Positions 11,902-59,735 are shown, numbered from the stretch's first letter. The stretch is DNA of 64,000 bases from Candidatus Aminicenantes bacterium (GCA_963843505.1 CAWJKR010000009.1:102506-166505); one strand, 5' to 3'. Notes: generated from the letters alone by a model not told the origin. A program made the numbers and translations.

Positions 11902-11905
11902 GCGC

Positions 11906-12937: not shown

Positions 12938-13007
12938 GACCTGCCTCCTTCGAACCGATGCGCGGTCCGTTTCTTCCAATCTAGCATATCATCCCCTCGC
13001 TGACCAA

Positions 13008-13173: not shown

Positions 13174-13271
13174 CTAATTGCCCGGCCGCGCTTCCGAGAA
13201 AATGGCGTGACGCCGAGCGTCTATCTGAACGGGCCGCAGGCGTCCGCTTGACAGATTGGAGGAGACATGAT

Positions 13272-13969: not shown

Positions 13970-13989
13970 GCCGGTCTTTCGGCGCCGGC

Positions 13990-14904: not shown

Positions 14905-15069
14905 GCCCCCCAGCCATACCTAAACCGGCCCGCAGACGCGGACAGGCAGCAAAAATATTTTTCGCCCTTTGTGAAAAATGACGTGTTCCTGCGGTCTTTA
15001 TCATTTGAAGAGTCCCGACGAACGGCCGGGATCCTTGGCCCAAAGAATGTTTCCGGAGAGGAGGAAAGC

Positions 15070-25993: not shown

Positions 25994-26008
25994 CTAAATA
26001 TCTCGGCA

Positions 26009-26037
26009 GGTCACCGCGTATTCACTGCGAGGTGACC
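26009..26037 (+). promoter_or_regulatory. Stem-loop whose 3' arm contains the Shine-Dalgarno-like GAGGTG of the downstream gene
   Basis: GGTCACC (26009-26015) and GGTGACC (26031-26037) form a perfect 7-bp inverted repeat with a 15-nt loop. The ATG is at 26039. Confidence 0.3.
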
Positions 26038-26038
26038 A

Positions 26039-27481
26039 ATGAACAAGCGCGCTTGGACCATATTGCTGCTTGCGCCTGTCTTCTTGTCTTTCGGACGGAC
26101 CCCCGCATCCCGAGACGGCCAGCCCGCCGTGTCGCGGAAGGGCGTCGGGCGGCTGGAGGCATTGGTGCTCAAGGGCGCGTTCCGCGACACCGAGAAGCTC
26201 GCGGCCGAAGTCCTGTCCGATCCCGCCGCCGACCCCCGGACGCAGGCCGTCTGCGGCCTGGCCTTCCTCAAGGCGGGGCGCATCCGGCAGGCCGAATCCG
26301 TCTTCAACAAGGTGGTCGCGCTCTCGCCCGACAATCCGGAGGCCCATCTCGGCCTGGGGAAGATCAGCCGTATCCGGAACGACACGGAGGCGGCCGTGGA
26401 GCACCTGAGCCGGGCCGTCCCCTCCGATGCCTTCTTCGAAGACGCGCTGCGTCAGCTCTGGCGGACTGCCTGGGATCGCGGCCTGGTCTCGGACCTCTTC
26501 GAGATCTATAAGACGGCCGAAACGCGCTACGGCCGAGAATCCAAGCCCCTCCCCTCCTGGTTCACCAACGGCCTCTCCCAGATCCGGGGGCTTCCGGGGA
26601 AACGGCTCTTCGATATGGAGGGCCGCGTCGAGCGCCTGCGCATCCCCCTGATCTCCGGCCCGGACCCCCGGGTCCGCATCCGAATGATCTCCCTCAAGCT
26701 CAACGGCAAGGGCGAGTATCTCTTCGACATCGATTCAGCCTCGTCCGACTTCCTGACGGTCAGCCCTCTGCTGGCCGAGGAGTTGGGCCTTTCTTTGTCC
26801 GGCAGCTCCACGGCTTCGGGCGTGGGGACGGCGAAGGCCGCGGTCCGCTTCGCCGTGCTGGGCAAGGTCGAGCTCGGAGCGATCGCCTTCCGGAACGTCC
26901 CGGTCATGGTCTCCGACCTGCATCCGTTCCGGGGACTGAAGAAGGGGCTGCTCGGCACGGGCCTGCTCAAACGCTTCAACGTCACGATCGACGTCGAAGC
27001 GCAGGCCATGACGCTCTTCCCGCTCGATCGTCCCGATCTTCTCGCCGGGACTATCGACCGGGCGGCCGTGGCCGCGGATATCCCGCTCTACCTTTTCGAC
27101 GCGACGACCGTCGAGGCCACTCTGGATGGGGCGCCCGCGGCTCTCTACATCCTCGATACGGCGGCAGCCACGAACCTCGTGGACGCCGTCTTTTTCGAGG
27201 AGCACCTCAAGCCGAAGCTCGATCCCGCCCAGATCGTCCGCGGCGGCATCACGGGCGCCCAGGGACCGCAGTCCGTCAACCGGATCGACGGTTTGAAGGT
27301 CGCCCTCGGTCCCCTTGTCTTCGATGATCAGTCCGCCCACGAATTCCCGATAGAGGAGCTGAACGCGATCGGCGGCCGGTACCTGGCCGGGCTCCTGGGC
27401 AATCCGGTGCTCTGGCCCTACCGCGTCCACATGGACTTCCGAGGCGGCCGGCTCATCCTGGAAAGGCGGCCCGGGTCCTGA
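26039..27481 (+). CDS. TPR plus tandem retropepsin-like aspartyl protease domain protein, secreted
   Basis: Signal-like N-terminus. TPR-like helices (AEAHLGLGKI). Two D-S/T-A/G motifs (FDIDSASSD and ILDTAAATN) in separate lobes. Intact 480-aa frame. Confidence 0.6.
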   Translation: MNKRAWTILLLAPVFLSFGRTPASRDGQPAVSRKGVGRLEALVLKGAFRDTEKLAAEVLSDPAADPRTQAVCGLAFLKAGRIRQAESVFNKVVALSPDNPEAHLGLGKISRIRNDTEAAVEHLSRAVPSDAFFEDALRQLWRTAWDRGLVSDLFEIYKTAETRYGRESKPLPSWFTNGLSQIRGLPGKRLFDMEGRVERLRIPLISGPDPRVRIRMISLKLNGKGEYLFDIDSASSDFLTVSPLLAEELGLSLSGSSTASGVGTAKAAVRFAVLGKVELGAIAFRNVPVMVSDLHPFRGLKKGLLGTGLLKRFNVTIDVEAQAMTLFPLDRPDLLAGTIDRAAVAADIPLYLFDATTVEATLDGAPAALYILDTAAATNLVDAVFFEEHLKPKLDPAQIVRGGITGAQGPQSVNRIDGLKVALGPLVFDDQSAHEFPIEELNAIGGRYLAGLLGNPVLWPYRVHMDFRGGRLILERRPGS

Positions 27482-27523
27482 TACGGCTTGAAAGCCACGG
27501 GCCCCGAGGTGTACATTGGGGCC

Positions 27524-29026
27524 ATGAAGACCGCGAAAAAGCCGCTCATCGCCCTTGTTTCGTCACTCCTCTTCCTGGCCCTGCTCGTGCCGACCGCCTC
27601 GAGCCAAGACGGCGAGTGCTTCACCGTCCTCGTCGGCAAGAACGCCAGCGCCGACGGTTCGGTCATGGTCGCCCACAACGAGGACGACCGGGGCGACATC
27701 GTCGTCAACCTCCGCAAGATCCGGGCCCGCGACTACGGCCCCCGGAAGGTCGATCTCGGCAAGGGCGCCTTCTACGACAGCGACGGCAAGACCGCGGGCT
27801 TCCTCTGGATCGAGGCGACGACCCAGGAGTTCGCCGACAGCTTCGTCAACGACAACGGGGTCCTCATCACCTCCGACAGCTGCCCGTCCCGCGTGAGCGC
27901 CGAGGACATGACCGACGGCGGCATCGGCTGGATGCTCCGCCGGCTCATGGCCGAGAAGGCGACATCGGCGCGCGACGCCGTCCGGCTCGCGGGCGAGCTC
28001 ATCGAAAAGTACGGCTACCGCGCCTCCGGCCGGACCTATTCGATCGCCGACAAGAACGAGGCCTGGATGCTGGCCGCTCTCAAGGGCCGCCATTGGTTCG
28101 CCCAGCGCGTCCCCGACGACGAGGTCGCCGTCATCCCCAACTATTTCACGATCCGCGGCATCCGCCTCGACGACCCGGACCACTTCATGGGCAGCCGCGA
28201 CATCGTCGAATACGCGACGAAGAACGGCTGGTACGACGCGGCCAAGGACGGCCCGTTCGATTTCAAGAAGGCCTTCGACAGGCCCTCGAACCGCGAGCCC
28301 GCCGCGGACGGCAACGCCCTCCGCCATTGGCGGGGCCTGAGCCTCGTCACCGGCAGGACCTGGGAGCTCGGCCGCGACTATCCGTTCTCCGTGAAGCCCG
28401 GCGCGAAAGTGACCGCCGAAGCGCTGATGGCCATCCTGCGCGATCACTACGAAGGCACGGAATACGACGCCACGGACGGCTACGTGAGGGGCACTCCGAA
28501 CCGGACGAAGTTCCGGACGATCTGCACGTCCTCGACGATCAACGCCTTCGTCGCCTCCCTCGACGCGAAGCGCCCGGAGCCCCTGGCCGTCTTGATCTGG
28601 CTGGCCATGGGCAAGCCCGACACGACCGTCTTCGTGCCGCTCTACGGCGGCGTCGAGAGCCTGCCGCCGGGAGCCGGCCTTGGGGGGAAAGACCACGACT
28701 ATGAGGCCTTCGAGAAGCTGCACTTCGCCGACGCGGAGCTCAAGGCCGCCAAGGCCGGCCTCCTCAACACCAAGGTCCTCGCCCTCGAGGCGGCGGCCGA
28801 AGCGGACTACGGCCCGATGCACGAAACGCTCATGAAGGAGCTCTCCCCCGTCGAGGAGGCGTTCCTCAAGGGCCGGCCGAAATTCGAGAAGCGTTTCGCG
28901 GCGCTCTACGCCAAGAACAGAAAGAAGGCCCAGAAGAAGCTCGACGACTACGTCGCGGACGCGTTCGCCAAGGTCGCCGACCTCACGACGAAGGTTCTGG
29001 AGAAGAGTAAGCCTTCAGGGCTTTGA
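27524..29026 (+). CDS. C69-family dipeptidase with signal peptide
   Basis: The GECFTVLVGKNASADGSVMVAHNEDD N-terminal nucleophile Cys context is typical of peptidase C69. Intact frame. Confidence 0.8.
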   Translation: MKTAKKPLIALVSSLLFLALLVPTASSQDGECFTVLVGKNASADGSVMVAHNEDDRGDIVVNLRKIRARDYGPRKVDLGKGAFYDSDGKTAGFLWIEATTQEFADSFVNDNGVLITSDSCPSRVSAEDMTDGGIGWMLRRLMAEKATSARDAVRLAGELIEKYGYRASGRTYSIADKNEAWMLAALKGRHWFAQRVPDDEVAVIPNYFTIRGIRLDDPDHFMGSRDIVEYATKNGWYDAAKDGPFDFKKAFDRPSNREPAADGNALRHWRGLSLVTGRTWELGRDYPFSVKPGAKVTAEALMAILRDHYEGTEYDATDGYVRGTPNRTKFRTICTSSTINAFVASLDAKRPEPLAVLIWLAMGKPDTTVFVPLYGGVESLPPGAGLGGKDHDYEAFEKLHFADAELKAAKAGLLNTKVLALEAAAEADYGPMHETLMKELSPVEEAFLKGRPKFEKRFAALYAKNRKKAQKKLDDYVADAFAKVADLTTKVLEKSKPSGL

Positions 29027-29993
29027 GGGCCAGGAGGGTGACCCATTTGCTTGGCCGGCCCTTCTTTTCGATATCGACCAGAAAACGCCCGTTGTAAGTG
29101 TCCTCCAAAAGCCACCGGCCATCGGCGTCCTGCTTGGACAGGATGAGCTCTGCGGCCTCCCCCATTCTCGGGTCCCGGTAGCCCAATTTCGCCAGGAGCC
29201 CGAAGACTTCCAGAGCGTCCCCGTCCCACATCATCGGGAATCCGAACTTCAGCCACTTGGGCTTGACGTCTTTCGTGAGGTTATGGCTTCGCTTGTGGAC
29301 ATGATGCCGAAGGAAGTATTCCGCGGCCGCGCCGATCGTCCTCTTGACCTCAGGCGAGCGCTTCTTTTGAGGGATCTCGGCCAAGGCTTTGAGCGTCTTG
29401 GCCACGCCGGAGTGGCAGGTGTGTCTTCCCCAGCAAGTATTCCATAGGTCGTACGGCCAGCCGGATGGCGCCGGGCCCGTCCGGTCGTCGAACCGGGCGT
29501 AGGTCGTGAGCCATTCGATCCCCATCTTGACCCTGGGATCGTCGCCGAACCCAAGCCGGATGAGGCTCCAGACCATGTTCCCGCACAGGCAGGGGACGAT
29601 GGCGCTGTGATAGCCGCCGTTCGGGCCGCCGCGATAAGCGAAACCGCCGCTCTCCCTATCCTGTGAAGCCCGGAGGATGAAATCGCCGGCGCTTCTGATC
29701 CTCGGGTCGCGCGGGTCGGCCCCGAGCTCGGCCAGGACGATCAGCTGCCAGACGGTGCCCTTGTACTTCGCCCGGACGTAGAAATCCTCGGCGATCCCCC
29801 AGTGGCCGCCCTTCATCTGCTTGGCCAGGATCTTGGGGACCGTCCCCGTTTCCATGATCGCCCTCTTGGCCGCCGCGACACGCCGGTCCCGGGGCGACGC
29901 GTCCAGGAGATCGACGAGGGTGTAGTAGCGGACCGAGGGGTTGTCCTCCTCGAGGAGCCAGGGGACGGGATCGGCTTTGAGACCGTGGATCAC
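28983..29993 (-). CDS. Prenyltransferase / terpene-cyclase-like alpha-alpha toroid repeat protein
   Basis: Repeated aromatic/Gly-rich motifs (GGHWG, SGGFAYRGG, DGRWLLED) in an intact 336-aa frame. GTG start. The 3' end overlaps the convergent C69 gene by 44 nt. Confidence 0.5.
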   Translation of the reverse strand: MIHGLKADPVPWLLEEDNPSVRYYTLVDLLDASPRDRRVAAAKRAIMETGTVPKILAKQMKGGHWGIAEDFYVRAKYKGTVWQLIVLAELGADPRDPRIRSAGDFILRASQDRESGGFAYRGGPNGGYHSAIVPCLCGNMVWSLIRLGFGDDPRVKMGIEWLTTYARFDDRTGPAPSGWPYDLWNTCWGRHTCHSGVAKTLKALAEIPQKKRSPEVKRTIGAAAEYFLRHHVHKRSHNLTKDVKPKWLKFGFPMMWDGDALEVFGLLAKLGYRDPRMGEAAELILSKQDADGRWLLEDTYNGRFLVDIEKKGRPSKWVTLLALKALKAYSSPEPSS

Positions 29994-30042
29994 GGCAGAA
30001 GCATAACGGCAGAGCCGAAGGGCGTCAAGATGCCCGTGCGCT

Positions 30043-30096
30043 CTCGCTGCTATCGCGCGAGGGGTTGCGGAATTGAGCTCGCAGGCTTGACAGGCC
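30043..30096. repeat. Left copy of an imperfect direct repeat flanking the low-GC island
   Basis: CTCGCTGCTATCGCGCGAGGGGTTGCGGAATTGAGCTCGC (30043-30082) matches 34872-34912 with 2 substitutions and 1 indel. The adjoining GCAGGCTTGACAGGCC matches GCAGCCTTGACAGGCC at 35089-35104. Confidence 0.8.
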
Positions 30097-30285
30097 CCGC
30101 TTCCGGGTTCAGAATCGGGACGTCCCGAGGGAGGCGCCGATCATGAACCATGGGGGCCCGTGGCCACCGGCCCGGGCCCCTCGCCACACGCAAACTTTAA
30201 CGGCCGCTTAGACAGGGAATCTACCGTTTAAAACTCACCTCATTCGCGGGCAGTCTACTTCATCCGCAAGAATATCGAACTAGCA

Positions 30286-32262
30286 CTAATAAATGCCTAC
30301 CACCACGTAGATAACATTAGAATAGTTAGACGTCCCCGCTGGGTTTTTTGCCACTACGCGATAATTATATGTGCCGGTTGATACCATAGTGTCTGTCCAT
30401 GTGATCGTCGGATTAGCAACCTGCGGGTCGGTCCAAGCCGTCCCAATCTCTTCCCACTGCTCGGTATCAGCCCGGCACCTCTCTACGGCAAAGGCCTGTT
30501 CGTTATTCGCGTTATCATTCCAGGTAAGCTGGACGTTATATTCCGCACACCACTCAGGAGCAGATAAGTTGGATGGAGCGCTTGGCGCCGTTGCAGGGAT
30601 CGTATAGGTCAGGGTATCGGTGAAATCGGAGTTTCCGGCCATGTTGTAACCACGGATCTTATAGTATGTGACAATGTTGCCATACGCGGTTGTATCTGTA
30701 TAAGAAACCGAGTTTTTTCCCACGGTGCCGATTGAGGTGAAGCTGCCCTCTCCAGATTTTTGTCTCTGAATCTCGAATCCGATTTCATTAGTTGCATTGT
30801 CGGTCCAAGCAATATGGATACTCTGCCAAGAATAGCTCTCACCAGAGGGATTACTCGGTGCACTAGGCGCAGCTGAATCATACATAATACTATATAGATT
30901 TAGCCTTCCGTCAGAGACACATTTATTTATTAGATCAGGAACATAGTCCGTCTTTTCCAAAATCCTATCCTTTACTTGAGTATAATTCATTAAGGGAATT
31001 TTACTCCAAGCCAAAGCGGCAGCTCCAGTCACGTGAGGAGCAGCCATCGAGGTTCCTGTCATATATTGATAATCGTCATATGGCTTTGTGCTATATATTC
31101 TTCCTGTGCCGTCCCCCGCCCCTCCCGGTGCCCCAAGGTCCACGGAGGTGTTCCCATAGTGAGAATAGCCGGTTATGTCGTCATTGTGGTCTGTGGCAAG
31201 CACAGCGATGACGTTAGTAAGAGTGTAGGAAGCTGGGTAGTAAGGGTACTGATCATTATCGAGATCAGGATCGCTACTGTAGTTGCCTGCCGCCGCAACA
31301 AAGAGTACTCCTTTTGTGCGCGCATAGTTGACTGCATTATATAGAGATTGCAGATTCTCTGGTGTACCCCAACTGGCGTTGATCACCCTAGCGCCGTTAT
31401 TAGAAGCATAGGAAATAGCTGAAATCGCTTCGGAAAGAGACCAAAACTCCAAGATCATAAGCTTGACATCCCAACATATCCCAGCGATTCCTTCGCCGTT
31501 ATTCCCCTTTGCACCAATGATGCCGGCTACATGCGTGCCGTGATAAAGCGGATAAAGAGTATCCGTTGGATTATTATCACCTCCAAAGAAGTCCCACCCG
31601 CGATAGTCATCTATATAGCCATTCCCGTCGTTATCCACCCCATCGGTTTCCTTTCCACCGCCAGTTTCTCCTGGATTGGTCCAGATATTGGCACTTAAAT
31701 CATCATGACTGAAATCTATACCTGAATCGATAATGGCGACAACAAAATCCGAACTTCCAGTATGAACGTTCCACGCTTCTGGAGCATCAATATCTGCGTC
31801 GGTTGTCCCCCCCGTTTGCCCCGAATTGTTAAGGGCCCATTGTTTTGAGAAGTGTGTATCATCGGTGTCGTAATTAATAATTACGTTGGGTTCTGCGAAT
31901 TCAACACCGGGAAGCTGCCTTAAGGTTGATATCGCTTTCTCCACACCTATGGAGTCAGGCACCTTAATGTGGATCAGATTCGGGAAATCAAGAAACGAAA
32001 GCCGAGAACTCAATGCGGAATCCCAATCCCGGGCCTGGATTTCGTTCTTCATGTACGTGAGAATATTCGCTTGAACCGAGCTGACGGCAGCTTGGACAAT
32101 TAACTTGTCCGTCCCGTCCCTAAATTTGACTAATACTTCATTGGGAACGTAAAACTCCTTCGATAATAAGAGCTGCTCCTGATTCGCGCTCGAGCTCTTA
32201 TTAAGGAGCAGGAAAGACAGCCCCACGAAAATTAACAGACCAATTGCACATGACCTTTTCAT
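30286..32262 (-). CDS. Subtilisin-like S8 serine peptidase with two C-terminal FN3-like domains; low GC
   Basis: Catalytic triad contexts VAIIDSGID (Asp), HGTHVAGIIGA (His), GTSMAAPHVTGAAALA (Ser). Signal peptide MKRSCAIGLLIFVGLSFLLL. AAGGGAGAA RBS. Intact frame. Confidence 0.9.
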   Translation of the reverse strand: MKRSCAIGLLIFVGLSFLLLNKSSSANQEQLLLSKEFYVPNEVLVKFRDGTDKLIVQAAVSSVQANILTYMKNEIQARDWDSALSSRLSFLDFPNLIHIKVPDSIGVEKAISTLRQLPGVEFAEPNVIINYDTDDTHFSKQWALNNSGQTGGTTDADIDAPEAWNVHTGSSDFVVAIIDSGIDFSHDDLSANIWTNPGETGGGKETDGVDNDGNGYIDDYRGWDFFGGDNNPTDTLYPLYHGTHVAGIIGAKGNNGEGIAGICWDVKLMILEFWSLSEAISAISYASNNGARVINASWGTPENLQSLYNAVNYARTKGVLFVAAAGNYSSDPDLDNDQYPYYPASYTLTNVIAVLATDHNDDITGYSHYGNTSVDLGAPGGAGDGTGRIYSTKPYDDYQYMTGTSMAAPHVTGAAALAWSKIPLMNYTQVKDRILEKTDYVPDLINKCVSDGRLNLYSIMYDSAAPSAPSNPSGESYSWQSIHIAWTDNATNEIGFEIQRQKSGEGSFTSIGTVGKNSVSYTDTTAYGNIVTYYKIRGYNMAGNSDFTDTLTYTIPATAPSAPSNLSAPEWCAEYNVQLTWNDNANNEQAFAVERCRADTEQWEEIGTAWTDPQVANPTITWTDTMVSTGTYNYRVVAKNPAGTSNYSNVIYVVVGIY

Positions 32263-32358
32263 TTCGATTCTCCCTTTTGCTTTGCCTATAATAGTTGACC
32301 AAGCGGACGAAAAGGACCTTAATCCTATCACTTCTAATAGTGCATTAAGACCACCTCC

Positions 32359-33294
32359 CTATAGATTTACTCTGAGGCCAAACCTAATCGACCATCCGCT
32401 CATATCAAGCGCTGTTCTTCTAATTCCAGCAGGGAATTCAATGAGGCCCTCTGGACGGGGAATCGTTAGGTCCGCGTATCGGTCCCCCGTGTAAAACTCC
32501 TCTCTAGTGTAATAATAAAGATCGCCGCTATCTTCACGATAGCTGCCCGGGTTCTTTCCTTCATAAGTTATGGTACCGTTGAAGTCGTGTATTTTCGCGT
32601 ATCGCCATTGAGCTTCAGCCACTAAGGCGGCCTTCTTCGTCATTTTTAGGTCAATCTCGACCCCAGCGTGAGGCGCTATCGTTCCGCAATAGCGTGTTTC
32701 CCAATACCGAATAAGCCAATCTGTAGCGCTCCCTGGAGGTGTAACCTCGAGCTTATAATATTCGGATAATTGTGCAAGATACAATCCAGCTCCCAGATTC
32801 AACTGGAGGCTCAGTTTTGAATCTGGGAGGAAGTTATAATAGACACTCCAAATCAATGGAGGCAGAGTTTGAATTCTCGGCCTTATAGTGAACGAATGTC
32901 GTTGCCCGACTGTCATCTCCCAGTTGATCGTATTTTCGTTGCTTTTCTGAAATGGCATCGATATCCCAAAGGCCAAACCGATTCTTCGATTAAGGTCCAA
33001 TCGGAATTCCAGATGCCATTCTGGAATCCTGGAATCAAGGGCCTTGATCTCGCCGGATATCAGTTCCGGATAGAACTCCCTATAAAGAACAAAAGATCTC
33101 ATATTATTAAAAGACTCAAGGACTCTGTTCATATCATTACCCGGCAAGTCGGACCCCCACCCTCCCGTTAGTTTGACGCTCAGCACCGGCTTGAAGGGCG
33201 TTTTATCTTCGGCAAGTGCTGGCGTAACAAGAATGACCAGGGCCAGGCAGATAATCGAGACCAGCACAACTCGCTTTTTTTCGACGACGCCCAT
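32359..33294 (-). CDS. Hypothetical exported beta-strand-rich (outer-membrane beta-barrel-like) protein; low GC
   Basis: Signal peptide VVLVSIICLALVILVTPALA. Alternating hydrophobic beta-strand patterns (LSLQLNLGAGLYLA, ALVAEAQWRYA, WSIRFGLRVNL). AGGAGGGGG RBS. Confidence 0.45.
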   Translation of the reverse strand: MGVVEKKRVVLVSIICLALVILVTPALAEDKTPFKPVLSVKLTGGWGSDLPGNDMNRVLESFNNMRSFVLYREFYPELISGEIKALDSRIPEWHLEFRLDLNRRIGLAFGISMPFQKSNENTINWEMTVGQRHSFTIRPRIQTLPPLIWSVYYNFLPDSKLSLQLNLGAGLYLAQLSEYYKLEVTPPGSATDWLIRYWETRYCGTIAPHAGVEIDLKMTKKAALVAEAQWRYAKIHDFNGTITYEGKNPGSYREDSGDLYYYTREEFYTGDRYADLTIPRPEGLIEFPAGIRRTALDMSGWSIRFGLRVNL

Positions 33295-33571
33295 GTCTAT
33301 CCCCCTCCTAGCAACGGAAACGCTTTATTGAGCCTCTTGGGTCGTTAGAAGGCCCCACTCCAGGTTCATGACTTTTTACTCTGGGTCCGCCTCCCGTCGA
33401 AGACGACCGTTATGAGCCTGCCCTCGGCGTGGCATGCCACGATTAACCCATCCGTTCCCATCTGTCTTAGGCCTAATTTAATGTCCTCTGGACGCTGAGG
33501 TCAAGGTAATTCGCATGATGTTTTTTACCAAACCACGCAGTACGGCTTTCGGATCAGAGCGAATATGTACA

Positions 33572-34315
33572 TCAATGCCATATAGGTCCCGCACCCAAAG
33601 TTCTGACTTGCGATGGCCATAGGGAGAAAGCCTGATAGAACCGCCTGCTAAACGCCCCCTGTTTGAAGCCGAATTCTATAGCAATTTCTTTAATTGATCC
33701 GGAGGTCGAAATCAGGCTCCAGAGAGAGTGACATAAGCGGATTCGATCTAAGAAACGCTTCAAAGGGATGCCGGCGGCGCGCCTAAACCTCCTCGAGCAG
33801 ACGGTGTGAGGCATGCGGACCAAATCCCTGATTTGCCGTATGCGCCCTATTTCCCCGTGGGCAACGACAACTTTGTGCTCCAAGATCAGCGAATCCCGCA
33901 CATGTGGCTTCAACTTAATTACTGCTGATTGTATCTCCTCAGATATCTCGTAACCAGCGAGAATGGAACGGGGACTCCCCTGGTCCTGTAAGGGCACACA
34001 TAAGCGCATATTTAGAGATTTAAGCGAAAGCCTGCCGAGTACTGCCCTTGCGACGAATACTGGAATACCTGGCCAGAAGGCACCGATACGGAATTTCCGT
34101 ATGCACTCCTTAGCAACGCAGCTGTAGTCACAACCTACGATGACAGCTGCAGGGACGCACTCGATTCTCGGTTCATCCTCGGGCTCGGCTACGATCCGGA
34201 CCTCTTGATCGAATCTCGGTCGAGCCCATTCGTAGAGGGTCCTGTCATTAGAAACCAATAGAATCGGACCGCTGGATTGCTTATTGACAATGCCCATTTG
34301 GTAACCAAGTCCCAT
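33572..34315 (-). CDS. AraC-family transcriptional regulator; low GC
   Basis: C-terminal double HTH pattern (CSRRFRRAAGIPLKRFLDRIRL...IKEIAIEFGFKQGAFSRRFYQAF). Confidence 0.7.
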   Translation of the reverse strand: MGLGYQMGIVNKQSSGPILLVSNDRTLYEWARPRFDQEVRIVAEPEDEPRIECVPAAVIVGCDYSCVAKECIRKFRIGAFWPGIPVFVARAVLGRLSLKSLNMRLCVPLQDQGSPRSILAGYEISEEIQSAVIKLKPHVRDSLILEHKVVVAHGEIGRIRQIRDLVRMPHTVCSRRFRRAAGIPLKRFLDRIRLCHSLWSLISTSGSIKEIAIEFGFKQGAFSRRFYQAFSLWPSQVRTLGAGPIWH

Positions 34316-38001: not shown

Positions 38002-38103
38002 GGGTCGGGGCGCCGGGAGAGGCGCGGGGCTCAGCGCTTGACCATCGACGGCTCGGGCACCATGGCCGAGCCGTTCCAGTAGCGGACGCCCTCGCGGAAC
38101 GTC

Positions 38104-39365
38104 TCATGATATGCCGTCGCCGAGGACGCTCGTGATCTTCCCGGCCTTGACCATCTCCTGGTGCCAGCTTCGTAGCCGTGGCCGCGCGTAGACCTGAAGG
38201 CACCGCGAGGCCGAAATCGAACTCGTAGTACAGGCCTCGATCCGTACGTCGCGCTGATCCGGTCGTTCTCGGTGATCGAACGCTAGTTGAAGCCCTCGAC
38301 GACGATGGCCCATGAGCCGCCGAGACATCCGCGTCTGCGGCACGGTCACGTAATAGAGCTCGGAGCCCGGCTCCATCTTCTCGCAGGCGTATTCCCCGTC
38401 TGCGGCGAAGCGCCGCTGATCCGGCGGGTGTCGAAGACGATCAGGCATCCGCCCCTGTATTCGTTGTTGACCCCGACGACGATGAGCTCCTCGCGGCCGT
38501 CGCCCGTTGATGTCATGGAAGACGGGATATCTCAAGTAGCCCGAGTTCCAGTACTCCCCGATCATGCGGCCCGAAGCGTCGAGGACGGCCATCTGGCAGG
38601 GCCAATCGGGCTTCTGGAAGGCGAACGACGAGCGTCTCGAGGCGGCCGTCGCCGTCCAGGTCGTGGCAGACGAAACCCGCGATGCGGTAGTCCGGCGAGA
38701 AGACCTTGTCGCCGCACTTGAGCTCCCTGCCGGCTTCGAAGCGCCAGATCTCTCGTCCCCGGCGGTCGAAGCAGATAAAGCCGAGCCCGATCCCGTCTGG
38801 TCCGCGCTTCCTCTTCGGGGCGAACAGGACCTCGTTGTCGCCGTCCCCGTTGATATCCTTGATGACGAGGCTCGGGAAGGCGATGCATGGTCTCTGGCTG
38901 ATGCGCCTGGAACTCTGCCCGGAAGAAGCTCTCGGGCATGAGGTCCTCGAACCTCGTGTCGTAGCGCCAGAGCTCGCGCTTCTGCTTGTCGAGGATGACG
39001 AGAAAGGACCCGTCGATCGTCGAAATCGGCCGGCTGGCGCCGGACCGGCTTCTCCCTGAAGATGAGAAAGGCCCCGGCCAGGACCACGACGGCCGCCCCG
39101 GCGACGGCCCATTTCAGCCAGGGGGACCGGCCCTCAGGGCCGTCTCGGCCGGAGCCGATTCGAGTTCTTGAACGTCCCCTGGAACCAGCGCGTCGAGCTC
39201 GTCCTTGTAGGCGAAAACGGGGGATTTCGTCCCGGCGCCCTCCGCCCGGTGGACGGGCATGCCGCGGTCGGTCTCCCAGCGATGGCAGGTCCGGACGTCG
39301 CACCCGAGGTAGGCGGAGATCTCCTTCCACGATCGGAGAAGATTATCCTGTGAGATTCCGCCCAT
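38104..39365 (-). CDS. Membrane-tethered HTH protein with extracytoplasmic FG-GAP/VCBS-like repeats; at least four apparent frameshifts
   Basis: N-terminus LLRSWKEISAYLGCDVRTCHRWETDRGMPVHR (HTH). TM segment WLKWAVAGAAVVVLAGAFLIF. Then IKDINGDGDNEVLF, CHDLDGDGRLETLVV and HDINGDGREEL-type repeats in shifting frames. The 3' end is uncertain. Confidence 0.55.
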
Positions 39366-39591
39366 TCCGGTTCCCTGGCCTTACAGGCTTTTAACAACAG
39401 TAGTTTACGCATCCTGACCGGGGTGTCAAGGACCGGAATGGAGAGGGATATCGAGCGGGGAAGCCGCAAAAACAGCCCCATTATAATAAAAAATGCAATA
39501 AAATCCTCAGGGAGTGAGAATTTTTATCGGCAATTCACCTCTATATTAAATAGAATAGCCCTTGAAAGCCGGACAGATCACGCTTGCCCAG

Positions 39592-40132
39592 ATGGATAAG
39601 TCCCACGCGAAGGAAGCAGAGTTCAGAGAACTCCTGGACGGCTACGCGCAATATATGAACATCCAGATCCAGCAGTACGATCTGGCAAAATACGGACTGG
39701 ATCCGGAAGACATCCTGCAGGACGTCAGGGTCAGGATCTGGAAGATCATCCAAAGCGAAAGGATCATCCTTTGTCCGGGTTCCTATATCAGAAAGATCAT
39801 CTACATCGGCGGTCATCGATCAACTGCGTAAGCGCCGCAGGGAAGACAACCTGGTCGTTTGCGAAAAGCTGAAGTGCATATCGGAACAAGGGTTCGCCTA
39901 TTTCCGGGAAGCCGATCGAAGGAAGGGCCTCGAAGAAACCGTGGGCCGGGCCGTAGAAGGGCTCATTGATTCGAGACGCCAGGTCGTCAAGCTGTACCTC
40001 ATGAACCTGAGCATTCAAGAGATCTCCGGCTACCTGAAATGGACACAGGACAAGACGCGGAACCTGCTTTATCGCGGGTTGGCCGACCTGAAGGAATCAT
40101 TGAAGGAAATGGAAGCCAAGAATGAGAATTGA
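39592..40132 (+). CDS. ECF-type sigma-70 family factor; one apparent frameshift near 39810
   Basis: Region 2 DILQDVRVRIWKII. Region 4 RQVVKLYLMNLSIQEISGYLKWTQDKTRNLLYRGLADLK in the second frame (track ORF 39941-40132). Confidence 0.75.
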
Positions 40133-40785
40133 CCGAGATAGCCTGAGAGACCTTTTCCAGGGATACGTCGATTCAAAGAGGCCCCCATGCCGCAGGAACT
40201 GTCCTGCCTTCATGGCCATGGCCGGCTCTTTCGAGCCCTCCGCTTCCATCCGTGACAAGAAGAGGATCATCGATCATATCTCCGCATGCTCATACTGCAG
40301 GGAAGAATTCATGCTGCTGGTCGAGCTTCGCAAAGCGGAGGCAGAACCGCTCGCGGAAAGAGGGGGGAGCTCTCCCGAGCGCAACTTCGCCCGAAGATAA
40401 CGAAAGGCAAGGGCCATCGTCATCCTCTGCTTTGGCAATACGCCTGTGTTCTCATCGGCCTGGGTCTCGCGTTCACCTCATTCTTCGTGCTCGTCCAAAG
40501 AAAAGAACTCTCGGAGTTCACAGGACGTCGGGGGCGGGGATTCTCACGCTCGCCCCGGAGATCGACCAAGCCCTCTCAGGTCCCATCGTCTTTCGCTGGC
40601 TTGCGGATCCCGACGCCGAATATTACGTCCTCGAGCTGTTCGATGAGGCCCTGTTGCCGGTCTGGGTCAGCGAAAGGATCCACGGCACTCAGATGAGTAT
40701 CCCCCCCGACGTTCGTTCAAGGCTCGAGTTCGGACAGCCCTACTTTTGGATGATCATCGGCCTATGCTCAAGAAACGGCAATTGA
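40122..40785 (+). CDS. Putative zinc-finger anti-sigma factor with one TM segment and a ~100-aa extracytoplasmic domain; two apparent frameshifts
   Basis: The start overlaps the sigma-factor stop by 11 nt. Cys pattern C-x4-C ... HISACSYC. TM segment LLWQYACVLIGLGLAFTSFFVLV. C-terminal domain FRWLADPDAEYYVLELFDEALLPVWVSERI...GQPYFWMI. Confidence 0.6.
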
Positions 40786-40837
40786 AGGAATCCCGTCTGG
40801 CCCGCTTCATCATCAGCCGTCAGAAGAACCCCGGCCC

Positions 40838-43737
40838 TTAGTGGACCATCCTCGCGGCCGAGGGGTCGCCCTGAAGCATAAAGGCCGCCCAAAAGAAGGG
40901 GTGGGCCCATTTCGATCCAAGCATCTTCTTTTTCGCATCACGGAGGGCCTCGTTCGCGGTCTGCCCTCCGATGAGGCCTTTGTAGAATTCGCCCATGAAA
41001 ACGACCGCCGCTTGATCGTTGAGAGTCCAGAGGGAGGCGATGACAGAGCGGGCGCCGGCGAAGAAGAAGGGTCGAGCTACGCCCAGCAATCCCTCCGACC
41101 CCACGAGGAGCCCTTTCCCGGTTTGGCAGGCCGATAAGACGACGAGCTCGGCGTTCATGGACAATCCATAGATCTCCCTCATCTGGAGGAGTCCGTCATC
41201 CTCCGACGCCTCCGCCCGGGAAAGCGCCAAAGCCGACCGAAAGGGATAGCGTTCGTTGAGAAGCCCGTGGCAGGCGAAGTGGATGATCCGGTAGTCCTTC
41301 AGGGAGAGTCTCTTTAGGCCGGATTCGCTGGCGGCATCTCCCGCAAGGACGTCAACGGAACCGGCGGAGAACAGCTTGGCGATGTCGCGAATCTCCTTTT
41401 TACTGAAGGGGAGCGGCGCCAGAGCCGCCCCGCCCAGGACATCCGGCGGTCCGGAGGTCTCACGCCGGCCTGGCGGGCCTCCCTCGACCCGCCTGAATCG
41501 ACCGTCCGATAATTCGGTCCCCCTACGGCCAATACCTCCTTTTTCCAGGAGCGAGGCGTTATCGGGTCCTTGAGCGCGAGGAGGGCCGAGGATGACGGGC
41601 AATAGGAGACGGCCAGATCTTCGACCAGGTAGCTTGTGCCTTTCTCTCCGGGGAGCCGGACGGCTTCAAAGGGAAGATTATGGAGGATCCCATCCGGGAC
41701 GACGATCAGGGCCTTGGCCTTCTTGAGGATTTCGGCCCTATCGAAGGGCATCAGCTCGCGCCCGATCCTCTCGGCGGCCTCGAATCCGGCCCGCGCATCC
41801 GATGACCGGTCGGAGATCAGCTTGAGATAAGCGCGCAGCGAAGACTCGATCTGGCGGCTGGCGGGCAAGACGAGGAGTTGAGCGCTTATTGGAGAAACGA
41901 TAACGAGGTAAGATCGCGGTTCGCCCAGAAAATATTCCAGGAGCACGGCATCCTCAGCATCGAGGACCCGCTGGACTTCGGGGATACTGCTCGTGTCACC
42001 CGGCCCATCTTCACTCATCCTTCCGGCGGTCTTCATCTCTGAGATGAGCCGGATATAGTCTTGTTCGGCGTGCTCCAGCTCGTTCTTCAACGCCTGCGCG
42101 TCTCCGCTGGACAGAGGGCGGCGAGCCAGGGCACGGGTCAGATCCGAGATGTTCCCGGAGATGAATCTCTGGCGTTCCTTCAGAATGGACAGGTCTGGCT
42201 CTGCGATATTGGCCCGGGCTTGGCGTACGCTCTCCAGGAAGGCGCGAGCCTTGGCCCTCTCGATGATATCGAACAGCTCCGCCAAGCACTCCGGGGAAGG
42301 CCGTTCGATCTGCCGGCGGGCCAGGATATGGATCGCGCTTTGGAAAGCCCCGTATTTGTTGCGCGCGAATCCTATCAAGAAAGGGTCCGAGGATATCCGG
42401 GCTCGCAGGCCCTCTATGGTTCCCATGGCCGTCCGGTAAAAGGATAACGCGGACGCGTCATCATTCTTCATCTCGAAGCACTGGCCGAGGCCAACAGAGG
42501 AGGCCACCCGGACATTCTCGAAGGAGTACCGCGAACTCAGCTCGTAGGCCATCCTGTAATACGTCACGGCGTCATCGATATTCTCCTCATCCAGGAACGA
42601 CGCGGCGATATTGCAGAGGACATGGCATCTTTCCAGAACTCGGCTCTGCCCCTCTGCAAACCGCATGGCCTTGGCGAACTGCAGGCGGGCGCTATGGTGC
42701 CTCTTGAGCTCATGGAGAGCGATCCCCATATTGTTGAGCGCCGCAAAGCAGACGACGGGATCCCGGTCTCCAATGTTCTGGAGGGCCAAGCATCTCTCGA
42801 AAGCCTCCATAGCTTGATTCAGATCGGCCGCGCTCCTCTCGTCGAGCCCTTTGCGCAAATACACTGAGCCGATATTATTCAGATCCATGGAGATCGCAGC
42901 CGCGTCCCCTCTCCTTTCGTCCAGCTCCATCGCCCGCAAGAGACAGCCCTGGGCCTGTGTCAGGTCCCCGAGCTCACGGTAGACGAGCCCGAGATTGCTG
43001 AGACACTCGGCCTCTGTTTGCCGGTCATTCGTCGTCCGAGCGGCTGAAAGGGCGTCTTCAAAATACTTGACAGCCTGAGAATAATCATGCCGCTGTTGAT
43101 AATACGCGCCGATGTTATTGAGGCACCGGCCCTGCTCGATCCTATGATTGATCAGCACGGAAATATCCAGGCTTTTTCGGCTGTTCTCGGCGAACAATTC
43201 GATCTTGCGCATTTCCAGGTAGGTCAACGACTGCTGGCGCAGGCATTTGAGCTGAAGGTCCGGGATCCCGATCTCCCGACCCAATAAGCAGGCGGCCTCG
43301 AATCTCTCTATGGACCGATAGAAGAGCGACGCCTTCCTGTCCTCTTTGCCCTGATTGTAGAATCTGATCAGCTCCAGGCACTTGGCGCAGAATTCGTGGG
43401 ACCTGGGGTCTTTCGCCTTCAAGAAGGCCGCGGCGGCTTCGCCAAAATAGCGCTCGGATTCAGCGATGTCCCCAAGGTCCCACTTGAGGAGGCCCATCCG
43501 AAGAAGGCATTTTGCCTGATAGCCGTGCCGTTGATCCCCGCGAGCCAAAGTAAGGGCGCGCTGCAGGGCGGCGAACGACTCTTCGTATTCGCCTTGAGAT
43601 CTCAGCAACGCCGCCTGAAGGAACGGAAGCTGGAGCGGTTGCCGCTCCGGAGGGATCGGTGATATTCGGCTCTCGCCTGGAAATAGGAAGAAGACAAGAG
43701 CCAGGATCTCGGGGAGACCCATCACGGAACCCTCCAT
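40838..43737 (-). CDS. TPR-repeat plus CHAT (caspase-like) protease domain protein; one apparent frameshift near 41460
   Basis: About 600 aa of TPR repeats (track ORF 41314-43737). The CHAT domain follows, with His context IIHFACHG and Cys context VVLSACQTG (track ORF 40838-41602). There is a hydrophobic N-terminal segment ILALVFFLF. Confidence 0.8.
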
Positions 43738-43844
43738 AGCCGAGGCCGAGTGACCTGGCCTGTATTATATTTAGCCTGCCCCAGGGAATCAACGCCGGCC
43801 AGGCGGATTACGGCATGCATTCGCACCTCAGATGCCAGGTTCCA

Positions 43845-43902: not shown

Positions 43903-45133
43903 ATGCGCAAAGACGACATCATGACCCTTACAGGAGAAAAAGACGCTTGTCCGTCGGATAAATTCTCACGGCGGAAGTTTTTCGGCACGGCCGCCATGGC
44001 CGCCGCCGGGGCGGCCCTGGCCCCGCGCCTGCTCGCCCAGGAGAAGGTCCAGGAGCGAAAAGCCGCCGGCCGCTCCCCCGGCCGAGATCAAGACCAATAT
44101 CGACGAGGTGCGGGGGATCCCCAGGGTCGCGACCTCGCTCCCCGGGAAATACCCCGGCAAGGTGGTCAGGGTCAAGACCGGGGCGAACCCCGTCGGGCAG
44201 AAGATCGACGGGGCCCGGGTGGCGCGCGAGATCGAGGCCGGCATGGCCAAGCTCACCGGGGAAAAGGACATGGGCAAGGCCTGGGGGCAGTTCGTCGGGC
44301 CCAAGGACGTCGTCGGCATCAAGGTCAATCCCATCGGGGGGAATATCCTCTCGACCAAGCCCGAGGTCGTGGACGCCGTCATCGCCGGGCTCCTGGCCGC
44401 GGGGGTGAAGAAAGAGAACATCGTCATCTGGGACCGGCGCCACTTCCAGCTCCAGGAGGCCGGGTTCACGCCCGAGCGCTTCCCCGGCATCCGCATCATG
44501 GGCACGGAGATGAAGGGCCCCAACGGGGAATTCTACGACGACAAGGGCGAGCTCTGGGCCAAGGACAACATCGACCGCGAGGCCCTGCCCTACGTCGCCG
44601 AGGTCGAGATGAAGTACGACAAGGAGCTCATGGGCTACATGCTCAACGAGGGCAAGAGCTCCTACTTCACGAGGATCGTCACGGAGACGGTGACCAAGAT
44701 CGTCAACGTCCCCATCCTCAAGAACGCCGGGGCGACGACGACCTGCTGCCTCAAGAACCTGTCCTACGGCTCGATCAGCAACACCTCGCGCCTGCACAAG
44801 CTCTGGATGAAGTCGGTCGTCGAGCCGTGCGCCTTCCCGGTCCTGCGGGACAAGGTCGTCCTCAACGTCGTCGACGGGCTCCAGGCCTGCTACGACGGCG
44901 GCCCCGGGGCCAACCCCAAGTTCATCTACGACTCGAACGTCCTCCTCTTCGGGACCGACCCCGTGGCCGTCGACGCCGTGGCCCACGACATCATCGTCAA
45001 GGAGCGGATCGCCCGGGGCACGCAGCAGGTGGACGACCCGCGGCGGCGGAGCGCCGCCTTCCTGGACCTCGCCGAGAAGCTGGGGCTGGGCGTCGCGGCC
45101 AGGGACAAGATCGCGATCAGCGAGGTGGGTTAG
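43903..45133 (+). CDS. DUF362-like protein with twin-arginine signal (paralogue of 11906-12937); one apparent frameshift near 44075
   Basis: Tat motif SRRKFFGTAAMAAAGAA. The remainder is intact in track ORF 44108-45133 (VVGIKVNPIGG..., TTTCCLKNLSYGS..., GTDPVAVDAVAHD). Confidence 0.6.
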
Positions 45134-45241: not shown

Positions 45242-46352
45242 ATGAAATCGCGCGGATTGGATTCGTCGGACTCGGCCTGGCGGCGGTGCTCCTCGCGGGT
45301 GCAGCACGGAGGACGGGGAGACGGGCTACAAGTATTTCGTCTATGTGACGGAGGCCGGCTCGGGGAAGGTCTCGGCCTTTTCCATGAGGGCCGGCTCGGG
45401 CGCGTTGAGCGCCCTCACGGGTTCGCCTTTCGCCGCGGGGACAGAGCCCCGGTCCGTCGCGGCCGATCCGTCGGGCAAGTTCCTCTACGTGGCCAACTAT
45501 TTTCCCGACAACGTCTCGGCCTACGCCATCGACGCCGCCACGGGGGAGCTGGCGGCCGTCCCGGGCTCGCCTTTCCCGGCGGGGCTCGGGCCCTACGCCG
45601 TGACGGTCGAGCCGCTGGGCAAGTTCGCCTACGTGGCCAACGCGGACAGCGCCAACGTCTGGCCCTATCTCATCGACCCGGACACGGGCGCCTTGGCCCC
45701 CTACGGCTCGCTGGCGGCCCCGGCGGGCATCCACCCGAGCTCCCTGACGGCCGATCCGACGGGCAAGTTCCTTTACGCGGCCAACGAGTATTCGGGCCAT
45801 ATCTCCGGCTATGCGATCAACACCGGCTCGGGTGAATTGGCGCCCGTGCCGGGCTCGCCGTTCGCCACGGGAGGCTATCCCAGGACGATCGTGATCGACC
45901 CCGGCGGCAAGTTCGCCTATGTGGCCAACAGCGCCTCGCGAAACGTCTCGGCCTTCGCCGTCGACGCGACGACGGGCGCGCTGACGGTGATCCCCGGCTC
46001 GCCTTATGCCGCGGGCGACAACCCCGTGTCCGTCGCGGTCGACCCGACGGGGAAGTTCGTCTACGTGGCCAACCGGGATTCCAGCAACGTGTCGGCCTAT
46101 TCCATCAACGCGACCACGGGCGGGCTCGTGGGCATCACGGGCTCCCCTTTCGCGGCCGGGGCCGGGCCCAGCGCCATCGCGGTCGACCCGTCGGGTAAAT
46201 TCGTCTTCGTGGCGAATTATTGGACAGACGACATCACGGCCTTTTCCCTCGACTCGGCGACGGGAGCCCTGACGGAGCTGGGCGGCTCGCCCTACGAGGT
46301 TCCGGTCGGGGCGCACCCCTCGGCGATCATTGCCATTCGGATAGCGCAATAG
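45242..46352 (+). CDS. Lactonase-like seven-bladed beta-propeller lipoprotein; two frameshifts within the signal peptide region
   Basis: GGAGG RBS and ATG at 45242. GLGLAAVLLAG-C lipobox recovered across frames. Seven repeats of the pattern GKF.YVAN.....V..Y.I....G.L. Confidence 0.65.
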
Positions 46353-59086: not shown

Positions 59087-59105
59087 GCAACTATTATTTA
59101 GTTGC
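59087..59105. promoter_or_regulatory. Operator-like palindrome upstream of hicA
   Basis: GCAACTA, 5-nt spacer, TAGTTGC: a perfect 7-bp inverted repeat overlapping a TTGCAA, 17-nt spacer, TAAGCT promoter-like arrangement that ends 4 nt before the hicA ATG. Confidence 0.4.
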
Positions 59106-59134
59106 AATTCCTTAAAAAGAGTGCTAAGCTATTC

Positions 59135-59392
59135 ATGAGCCGCCACGAAAAACTCCTTCGTCGCTTCATGGCGAAGCCGGCGGATTTCGGGTTCGACGAG
59201 ATGCTCACGCTGCTGCGGGGTTTCGGATATGAGGAGATCAAGTCCGGGAAGACCGGGGGGGCGCGCGTCGCGTTCATCCATAGAAACGGAGGCCATATCA
59301 TCCGGCTCCACAAACCGCATCCGGGGAAGATCATGAAAAAGTACCAGATGGAGCTCGTCCAGGAGGCATTGAGAGTCCAAGGGGATCATCAA
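59135..59392 (+). CDS. hicA: HicA-family toxin (no stop codon before hicB in the sequence as given)
   Basis: FDEMLTLLRGFGYEEIKSGKTGGARVAFIHRNGGHIIRLHKPHPGKIMKKYQMELVQEAL is the typical HicA dsRBD-like fold signature. Confidence 0.7.
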
Positions 59393-59735
59393 GTGAAGGA
59401 TGTTCTTCGGTACACGGACTTCATCGGGTCGGTCCATTTCAGCGCCGAAGACGAATGCTTCTTCGGTAAGATCGAGGGCATCGACGACCTGGTGACCTTC
59501 GAGGGCCGCGATGTCGGCGAGCTGAAGCGCGCCTTTCGCGAAGCCGCCGATGATTATATCGACCTCTGCCGGAAGGCCGGGAAACCCGTATTCAAGTCGT
59601 ATGTCGGGTCCTTCAATATCAGGATGCCGGCGGAACTTCATCAGAAGGCCGCCCGGAAGTCCGCTCTTCTCGGGATATCGCTCAACCAGCTCGTTCAGCG
59701 GGCGGTCGAGAAAGAGGACCAGGGAATCCAGATGC
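59393..59735 (+). CDS. hicB: HicB-family antitoxin with C-terminal RHH; 3' end uncertain
   Basis: GTG at 59393 preceded by AAGGGGA. VKDVLRYTDFIGSVHFSAEDECFFGKIEGIDDLVTFEGRDVGELKRAFREAADDYIDLC plus SFNIRMPAELHQKAARKSALLGISLNQLVQRAVEKE. The frame runs on without a stop into the next gene. Confidence 0.7.

Follow-up and report, generated by a model that had tools for sequence, protein, structure and literature searches.

A conserved ECF sigma factor, a membrane anti-sigma factor and a predicted exported TPR-CHAT protease encoded as separate neighboring genes in Aminicenantia

The link between CHAT proteases, which are of the caspase/separase type, and extracytoplasmic function (ECF) sigma factors comes so far from defense cases, namely Csx29 of type III-E CRISPR (clustered regularly interspaced short palindromic repeats) systems and DdvA of Myxococcus. 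DdvA joins a CHCC/ZAS (zinc anti-sigma) domain, a single transmembrane (TM) helix, and a periplasmic tetratricopeptide-repeat (TPR)-CHAT portion with a His-Cys dyad in one chain, and is paired with the ECF sigma factor DdvS. In the published model, a flexible juxtamembrane linker is the proposed site of self-cleavage in trans, which is followed by the action of RseP; DdvS/DdvA controls a CRISPR/cyclic oligonucleotide-based antiphage signaling system (CBASS) island, and DdvA-like proteins are reported only from some Myxococcota and one Comamonas (PMC11506125). In the type III-E craspase (Cas7-11, Csx29, Csx30, Csx31, and CASP-sigma), the cytoplasmic TPR-CHAT protein Csx29 is activated by RNA via Cas7-11 and cuts the soluble Csx30, leading to proteolytic release of an ECF-like sigma factor (PMC10028731). 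A protease-controlled sigma/anti-sigma pair also occurs in the CalpL-CalpT-CalpS and the SAVED-CHAT/PCaspase cascades of type III-B CRISPR, which are cytoplasmic, lie in defense loci, and are triggered by cyclic oligoadenylate (bioRxiv 10.1101/2023.06.23.546230). In the actinobacterial group ECF54, which is defined as lacking an anti-sigma factor, genes for CHAT proteins, subtilases, and carboxypeptidases lie in the neighborhood of the sigma gene, and proteolytic control has been proposed (PMC8999054; PMC7826278). Here, we describe three genes at positions 39592–43737 of a 64-kb stretch of Candidatus Aminicenantes bacterium (GCA_963843505.1 CAWJKR010000009.1:102506-166505), which is hereafter called the window and whose coordinates are counted from its first letter. 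They encode an ECF-type sigma factor, a single-pass ZAS-type anti-sigma factor, and a TPR-CHAT protease (CHAT1), and appear as a two-protein version of the design known so far as the single fused protein DdvA. The CHAT-ECF pairing is thereby met as an ordinary, class-wide chromosomal module outside CRISPR and CBASS.

The sigma gene (39592–40132, + strand; ATG at 39592, stop at 40130–40132) is split into two open reading frame (ORF) pieces and gives 179 aa after frame correction. Its 3′ end overlaps by 11 nt the ATG (40122) of the anti-sigma gene (40122–40841, + strand), whose corrected product of 238 aa was aligned with intact orthologues of 218–238 aa. CHAT1 (40838–43737, − strand; 965 aa after correction, from ORF pieces with lengths of 807 and 254 aa) runs toward the anti-sigma gene, so that the two are convergent, with a 4-nt overlap of their 3′ ends; such an overlap of a few bases was also seen in relatives. 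The ORF listing and three-frame translation hence placed the three genes, including the 11-nt overlap, where a first-pass annotation of this DNA had put them. The anti-sigma end at 40785 given there had to be revised, as alignment to the intact genes of L006 identified it as a premature stop created by a frameshift, the true stop being located at 40839–40841. L006, a contig of 3 kb taken from a public run, shares 95% DNA identity with the window and carries intact genes of 179, 238, and at least 520 aa.

The corrected sigma protein is assigned by its domains as a divergent ECF-type (group 4) sigma factor. Its Pfam matches were weak and below the gathering cut-off (Sigma70_r2 at residues 31–84 with 20 bits, r4_2 at 118–167 with 20.7 bits), while both domains are present in the precomputed Pfam annotation of its homologues, which number at least 400. 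The intact homologue P0001, which is 97% identical to the sigma factor of the window, scored 42.1 bits (E 6.5e-11) against the NCBIfam model TIGR02937 for sigma70-ECF, just under its cut-off of 42.9. A profile search of the PDB located SigW of B. subtilis as the nearest solved relative of the family (E 3.4e-5).

The anti-sigma factor matched no family in Pfam or NCBIfam, and its anatomy was examined using an AlphaFold2 (AF2) model, which was computed from a 43-sequence alignment for an intact homologue close to it. Four helices (residues 5–18, 30–35, 43–55, and 57–74) were modeled for the N-terminal domain. This domain carries the zinc motif H-x3-C-x2-C (HISACSYC, H52-x3-C56-x2-C59; 40275–40298, + strand) together with an upstream Cys27 (codon 40200–40202), a combination that assigns the protein by sequence to the ZAS type (class I). 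C27, H52, C56, and C59 are invariant in the 43 homologues and conserved in 79 sequences, comprising the window and 78 orthologues. A basic stretch (KITKGKGHRH) precedes the TM helix PLLWQYACVLIGLGLAFTSFFVLV (approximately 40424–40495, + strand; AF2 helix 101–135) on the cytoplasmic side, giving an N-in topology with a single TM helix. Outside the membrane follows a flexible juxtamembrane linker of low predicted local distance difference test score (pLDDT; residues 129–137 of the model), and an Arg column conserved across orthologues lies in this linker, a few residues away from the membrane. Arg is the P1 residue for separase and the metacaspases, which are clan-CD relatives. The linker leads to a periplasmic ectodomain of approximately 95 aa (40545–40815, + strand) that was modeled as an Fn3/Ig-like β-sandwich with pLDDT of 90–96; its best fold matches in the PDB are fn3 domains (E ~1e-4, TM-score to target 0.6–0.69), and its conserved motifs are FRW, YxLExFD, LPxW, YFWM, and ES. 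The zinc anti-sigma factor with one TM helix and an outer domain, as first proposed for this gene, is consistent with all of these features. When 1.84 billion representatives were searched with a profile, no fewer than 249 clusters (50% identity) were found at E ≤ 1e-30. They make up an anti-sigma family that has an Fn3-like ectodomain and had not been annotated.

Pfam located TPR_12 in five stretches (E 1.2e-34) and CHAT (PF12770, E 1.8e-55) in CHAT1. The translation agreed with an approximately 965-aa TPR-CHAT protein, as annotated at first pass, in which the caspase-like catalytic dyad (41126–41269, − strand) is intact at both His (HFACHG, codon 41267–41269) and Cys (LSACQTG, codon 41126–41128). 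Both residues are retained by 71/72 CHAT1 orthologues, which, together with a ratio of nonsynonymous to synonymous substitution rates (dN/dS) of 0.21, indicates that the enzyme is probably active. The N-terminus of CHAT1 carries a hydrophobic export signal or signal anchor, MEGSVMGLPEILALVFFLFPGESRIS (43660–43737, − strand; maximum Kyte-Doolittle mean 2.57). When an 11-residue Kyte-Doolittle mean of at least 2.0 ahead of the first TPR was taken as the sign of an export signal, it was found in 55/57 CHAT1 proteins and in 31/34 proteins of CHAT2, a second exported TPR-CHAT paralogue described below, vs. 9/455 internal control segments. The hydrophobic segment had been recognized at first pass, with the location of the protein left in doubt over the missing basic n-region. 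This doubt is settled by the orthologues, the majority of which possess a canonical signal peptide, as exemplified by MKRGKAYLAIVLVLSVSICLKA and MQRRRRAIILLAGALAGVAAA, and many of which show a canonical basic n-region. From this conserved N-terminal signal, CHAT1 is predicted to be exported or membrane-anchored with its bulk in the periplasm, which is the compartment of the Fn3-like domain of the anti-sigma factor. Any cleavage would consequently fall on the periplasmic side of the latter, in its linker or its ectodomain, and not on a cytoplasmic Csx30-like partner.

The structure of CHAT1 was modeled through its intact homologue P0189 (94% identical to CHAT1 of the window), for which AF2 gave a pLDDT of 81.6 and a predicted TM-score (pTM) of 0.71. 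The model consists of a TPR superhelix of approximately 540 residues (about 31–570) followed by an α/β CHAT domain (590–960). Foldseek ranked the periplasmic TPR-CHAT portion of DdvA of Myxococcus xanthus (8rw5, E 3.6e-16) ahead of Csx29 of the craspase and separase in the PDB, with low global TM-scores of 0.31–0.39 (0.31–0.34 for 8rw5) and an identity of approximately 14%. A sequence search of the PDB with CHAT1 gave generic TPR proteins and a marginal match to the CHAT domain of Csx29 (E 1e-3). Assignment of CHAT1 as Csx29 itself was rejected, as it scored 31.5 bits against the NCBIfam model NF041237, whose cut-off is 300. The relation to the DdvA system is one of modeled fold and architecture, and homology is not claimed.

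With a periplasmic location predicted for CHAT1, DdvS/DdvA is a more apt precedent than the type III-E Csx29 invoked at first pass. The ECF sigma factor, the zinc anti-sigma domain, the single TM helix, the periplasmic TPR-CHAT portion with its His-Cys dyad, and the flexible juxtamembrane linker all have counterparts in the DdvS/DdvA pair. The present module differs in that the TPR-CHAT protein is encoded by a separate, convergent gene and is exported on its own, and in that the anti-sigma factor bears a small Fn3-like ectodomain. It also differs in being class-wide in Aminicenantes, in the sigma-type promoter of its CHAT gene, and in its surroundings, where no CBASS/CRISPR island is nearby. 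The craspase shares with it the association of a TPR-CHAT protein of similar fold with an ECF-like sigma factor released by proteolysis; the export signal, the membrane-bound anti-sigma factor, and the lack of Cas genes and array set our locus apart. As had been annotated, there is no CRISPR context: the search for repeat arrays and the Rfam search of the 64-kb window were both empty, and Cas7-11/gRAMP and Csx30/Csx31 were found neither among the window ORFs nor in the related loci. No defense genes were detected in the neighborhood, where PADLOC assigned no system and gave weak generic TPR/CHAT matches alone. The cytoplasmic location, the cyclic oligoadenylate trigger, and the defense setting of the type III-B cascades are likewise not features of the present locus. 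ECF54 resembles it in the conserved genomic association of an ECF sigma factor with CHAT, but differs in lineage and in its lack of the ZAS anti-sigma factor, which accompanies nearly all of the loci examined here. Canonical regulated intramembrane proteolysis (sigmaE-RseA-DegS/RseP; Prc in cell-surface signaling) also has a single-pass anti-sigma factor with a sigma-binding cytoplasmic domain and a periplasmic domain, an autoregulated sigma operon, and a periplasmic site-1 cut that is expected to license intramembrane cleavage. In place of a PDZ serine protease, our module has as its candidate site-1 protease a cysteine protease of clan CD that bears a TPR sensor array, is encoded beside the operon, and appears to be sigma-controlled. 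Full-text literature searches found no paper in which an ECF sigma factor and an anti-sigma factor are paired with a CHAT protease that is a separate, exported protein, and none on ECF factors of Aminicenantes.

Conservation of the module was examined by a scan with one genome per species, which gave 393 related stretches, and the locus counts given here refer to the best 80 of these. All 80 belong to metagenome-assembled genomes (MAGs) of Aminicenantes or to obviously mis-binned contigs. Contigs L012, L018, L020–L024, L039, and L065 are filed under MAGs of Omnitrophota, ‘Eubacteriales’, Euryarchaeota, Methanotrichaceae, Promethearchaeota, or Hydrothermarchaeota, labels that probably reflect mis-binning or placeholder taxonomy. 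The anti-sigma gene lies directly 3′ of the sigma gene in 77/80 loci, with an overlap of 8–32 nt in most of them and of 11–26 nt as the typical case. A convergent TPR-CHAT gene is located within 200 nt of the anti-sigma gene, often overlapping it, in 69 of the 74 loci whose contig extends far enough past the anti-sigma gene. The linkage of the triad persists down to 43% sigma identity, and in every locus anti-sigma and CHAT are encoded apart from each other, by convergent genes. The first-pass annotation had asked whether the three genes co-occur in other genomes, and these counts answer in the affirmative. Among 41 loci with full flanks, most flank genes are kept in 2–17 loci (FG-GAP in 12, DUF362 in 17, AKR in 9, PilN/O in 12), and NDK alone is comparable to the triad (35/41). 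The triad is thus one orthologous locus of one class, whose genes stay together more firmly than those around it. CHAT2 (~990 aa), the other exported TPR-CHAT paralogue, lies upstream of the sigma gene on the same strand in 33 of the 52 loci with enough upstream sequence to test for it, at a distance of either 3–7 kb or approximately 100 nt (L027–L086; e.g., 6896–9883 in L075 and 6912–9896 in L061), and its dyad is intact in 47/47 proteins. The window has no CHAT2; an FG-GAP-repeat gene sits on that side of its operon.

The GC content of the triad (0.579 in 39500–43800) is below that of the 10-kb flanks (0.615) and of the whole window (0.633), in agreement with the low-GC patch annotated at first pass. 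The same was observed in 44 of 46 full-flank loci (a few redundant copies included), for which positions 9900–14200 were compared with the flanks; the means were 0.48 and 0.575, respectively, and examples are L002 (0.50 vs. 0.69) and L019 (0.39 vs. 0.62). Since the low GC is kept across loci, it is a lasting property of the module, and gives no sign of recent transfer.

A shared promoter motif connects the sigma operon with CHAT1. Within the 260 nt upstream of each sigma gene, TGAGAA was found in 75/80 regions, with CATCTAT(A)T at a constant distance 3′ of it. This gives a two-block promoter, TGAGAA-N17-CATCTAT, in about 75/80 loci; TGAGAA and TCTAT are N19 apart in 64 loci but N18 apart in 6 others, and the motif lies 60–90 nt ahead of the start codon across the loci. 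In the window, the predicted autoregulatory promoter of the sigma/anti-sigma operon (39515–39547, + strand) consists of a −35 TGAGAA (39515–39520) and a −10 block CCTCTATATT (39538–39547), and lies approximately 45 nt upstream of the ATG. A position weight matrix of this motif gave 44.9 bits there vs. 16.4 bits for the runner-up in the window, which is a weak match at 14968 ahead of an RHS-repeat ORF. A variant with an identical −35 block and an ECF-like −10 block, TGAGAA-N16-19-CGTCT, precedes CHAT1 in 38 of the 64 species-representative loci, including the window, where the predicted sigma-dependent CHAT1 promoter TGAGAATTTATCCGACGGACAAGCGTCT (43968–43941, − strand) is located approximately 205 nt upstream of the CHAT1 ATG. 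This variant gave 81 matches in 2.56 Mb on both strands, nearly all at three fixed positions; the background is approximately 0.01–0.03 matches per region, and none of 37 CHAT2 genes carries it upstream. The sigma factor is therefore predicted to autoregulate its own operon and to drive CHAT1; this is well supported for the protease gene, with promoter activity read from the motifs. The sigma operon and CHAT1 are the sole predicted targets found. The one other exact match in the window, TGAGAA-N18-CGTCT at 58991 (+ strand), lies approximately 110 nt 5′ of an ORF for a HicA/HicB toxin-antitoxin and is probably a chance occurrence, and a match at position 12160 of L049 proved to be coding sequence (MRIAMIAAIV) and no promoter. 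A motif of such specificity can be used for regulon prediction in this uncultured lineage.

The variant form TGAGAA-N17-19-CGTCT also occurs within the sigma gene, approximately 150 nt from its start, in 30 orthologous loci (+ strand; e.g., 5821 in L027, 10163 in L028, L032, L035, L038, L068, and L070, and 10145 in L049), the window not being one of them. The codon before a conserved S-Y-I at this site is nearly always xCG (GCG, TCG, or CCG), while the encoded residue varies among A, S, and P. Such retention of xCG suggests selection on the DNA, and this site may be an internal sigma-dependent promoter driving the anti-sigma gene.

The three-gene unit is well supported as a chromosomal module conserved across the class Aminicenantia, and is best explained as one for envelope signaling. 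Observed are the linkage of the genes, the anatomy of the domains, the conservation of the dyad, the export signal, and the promoter motif in common; from these, we infer which protein cleaves which, the signal, and the feedback as follows. The sigma factor would be held at the inner membrane by the co-transcribed zinc-binding anti-sigma factor, and CHAT1 would be exported to the periplasm, on the same side as the anti-sigma ectodomain. A ligand or partner that binds to the TPR array would induce CHAT1 to clip the anti-sigma factor in trans, in its periplasmic linker or in its ectodomain (the site-1 cut), after which a site-2 protease and cytoplasmic proteases would release the sigma factor. 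The free sigma factor would then transcribe its own operon from TGAGAA-N17-CATCTAT and also CHAT1 from TGAGAA-N16-19-CGTCT, and sigma-driven CHAT1 expression would lead to positive feedback. Cleavage of the anti-sigma factor by CHAT1 is plausible, and such a cut in the periplasm, in trans, within this sigma-feedback scheme is regarded as a real possibility that falls somewhat short of probable. Trans-cleavage is favored because of the linkage, the shared compartment, the conserved dyad, the shared promoters, the fold match to DdvA, and the Arg of the linker. We propose more tentatively that CHAT1 is a dedicated signal-sensing site-1 protease acting in a sigma-controlled positive-feedback switch, so that the DdvA fusion would be a special case of a general two-protein design. 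As the proteins are split here, questions left open for DdvA, namely whether the CHAT domain makes the site-1 cut and what triggers it, become testable. If the proposal is true, an exported trans-acting protease switch would be standard equipment of a whole bacterial class.

Several observations weigh against cleavage of the anti-sigma factor by CHAT1. For most ECF groups, a conserved neighbor with a sigma-type promoter is simply a target gene. Loci L050 (10001–13468) and L082 (9977–13336) contain sigma followed by a convergent CHAT1 gene and no anti-sigma gene, and L049 and L068 contain sigma and anti-sigma genes and no CHAT1. These partial triads indicate that the pairing is not obligatory; the four loci do possess CHAT2. 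A gene for a secreted protein (~290–310 aa) occupies the convergent CHAT place in L049 and L068, and L051 has an assembly gap. No fused anti-sigma-CHAT (“Rosetta stone”) protein was found among the best 150 anti-sigma relatives (124–274 aa), and neither DdvA nor DdvS was retrieved in PDB sequence searches with the sigma profile, the anti-sigma profile, or CHAT1. The module is one orthologous locus of one class in which NDK is syntenic too, so that vertical inheritance adds to the co-occurrence, and the triad copy in the window is frameshifted. Lastly, the CHAT1 motif in 17 loci, including the window, sits opposite the start of the divergent DUF362 gene, whose N-terminal codons (KDACPSDKFSRR) are conserved, and the DUF362 coding sequence could itself preserve the motif of the window. 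A mere by-product of the DUF362 N-terminus was rejected as the general origin of the motif, as 21 loci without DUF362 beside CHAT1 carry it in non-coding DNA.

The most serious alternative is that CHAT1 is an output only, that is, a member of the regulon that would serve as an induced periplasmic protease or scaffold for other envelope substrates and take no part in sigma release. The signal would then be sensed by the anti-sigma factor through its Fn3-like domain, and general site-1 and site-2 proteases would process it as in sigmaE/RseA. Sigma-dependent expression of CHAT1, a point the first-pass annotation had left aside, makes this a serious rival, which we regard as possible without being the likely outcome. 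Besides the sigma-type promoter in 38/64 loci, the four partial triads favor it somewhat, and L082, which lacks the anti-sigma gene, also retains the motif upstream of CHAT1. Neighbors in ECF operons are often targets, and the re-classification of ECF factors warns that regulators and targets are indistinguishable from gene context (PMC7826278). An output role, however, leaves unexplained why a TPR-CHAT fold was chosen as the partner, given that the same architecture is fused in DdvA (PMC11506125). Furthermore, none of 37 CHAT2 genes carries the motif, although CHAT2 borders this operon in 33/52 loci. A promoter-less CHAT2 beside the operon suggests a function connected with the sigma/anti-sigma pair instead of simple co-regulation.

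A second alternative, in which the triad and the neighboring FG-GAP and DUF362 genes would be true pseudogenes and the module non-functional in this genome, is considered unlikely. Its basis is 10 single-base indels relative to L006 that break the frames inside the three genes, within approximately 3 kb. One is in sigma (39802, a 1-nt insertion), seven are in anti-sigma (40357, 40382, 40516, 40756, 40782, 40826, and 40830), and two are in CHAT1 (41496 and 41508, both 1-nt insertions). Indels relative to the close relative L007 are also dense in 37.5–41.5 kb and sparse in the block 25994–30039. The FG-GAP-repeat gene (38043–39365, − strand) and the DUF362 gene (43903–45124, + strand), the latter with a twin-arginine-like SRRKFF N-terminus, are each split over two or three frames as well in comparison with intact homologues. 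Against decay, the corrected proteins are 92–99% identical to intact homologues, and the dN/dS vs. L006 after frame correction is 0.096 for sigma, 0.32 for anti-sigma, and 0.21 for the C-terminal 520 aa of CHAT1. Such low values indicate that most of the divergence arose under purifying selection. Eight of the 10 indels are insertions, mostly away from homopolymers, which is opposite to the deletion bias of bacterial pseudogenes, and both in-frame stop-creating substitutions and larger deletions are absent. A Ser/Thr kinase gene distant from the triad (3222–5176, + strand) is also split, over three frames, suggesting patchy assembly error, while other genes are intact. Copies of the triad genes are intact in each close relative examined (L006, L007, P0002, and P0189). 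The purifying selection on substitutions, the insertion bias, and these intact copies make it likely that the indels are local assembly errors. The frameshifts reported at first pass for all three genes are hence present in the sequence and probably artefacts.

Synteny without function, in which the three genes would be neighbors merely through vertical inheritance of the whole region in one class, is very unlikely. All 80 loci are from Aminicenantes and NDK is co-retained, as this explanation expects, but the other flank genes are kept in 2–17 of 41 loci while the triad remained abutting or overlapping, and a highly specific promoter motif is common to the sigma and CHAT1 genes. A cytoplasmic Csx29-like switch, in which CHAT1 would cleave a cytoplasmic part of the anti-sigma factor or a Csx30-like adaptor, has the Csx29/Csx30/CASP-sigma precedent (PMC10028731), the weak CHAT similarity, and the fold match in its favor, but is scarcely credible given the export signal conserved in almost all orthologues, the Csx29 model score far below cut-off, and the absence of Cas7-11, a CRISPR array, and Csx30/31 from the window.

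Other features of the window lie apart from the triad. The RHS-repeat ORF (14971–21402, + strand) is intact and encodes 2143 aa with DUF6531 and Ig-like (HYDIN/ASH) domains, as in a large surface protein of the RHS/toxin type. The region 30000–34000 has a GC content of 0.46–0.51 vs. 0.63 for the window and lies between blocks that are adjacent in L007; it looks like an inserted island. The HicA/HicB ORF (59102–60076, + strand) is a single frame of 324 aa containing both a HicA-toxin and a HicB-antitoxin domain, which is either a fusion or a frame artefact. A gene for a lactonase-type 7-bladed β-propeller is located at 45345–46352 (+ strand), and a tandem repeat within it (45909–46213; 144 nt, 2.1 copies) mirrors the blade repeats of the protein.

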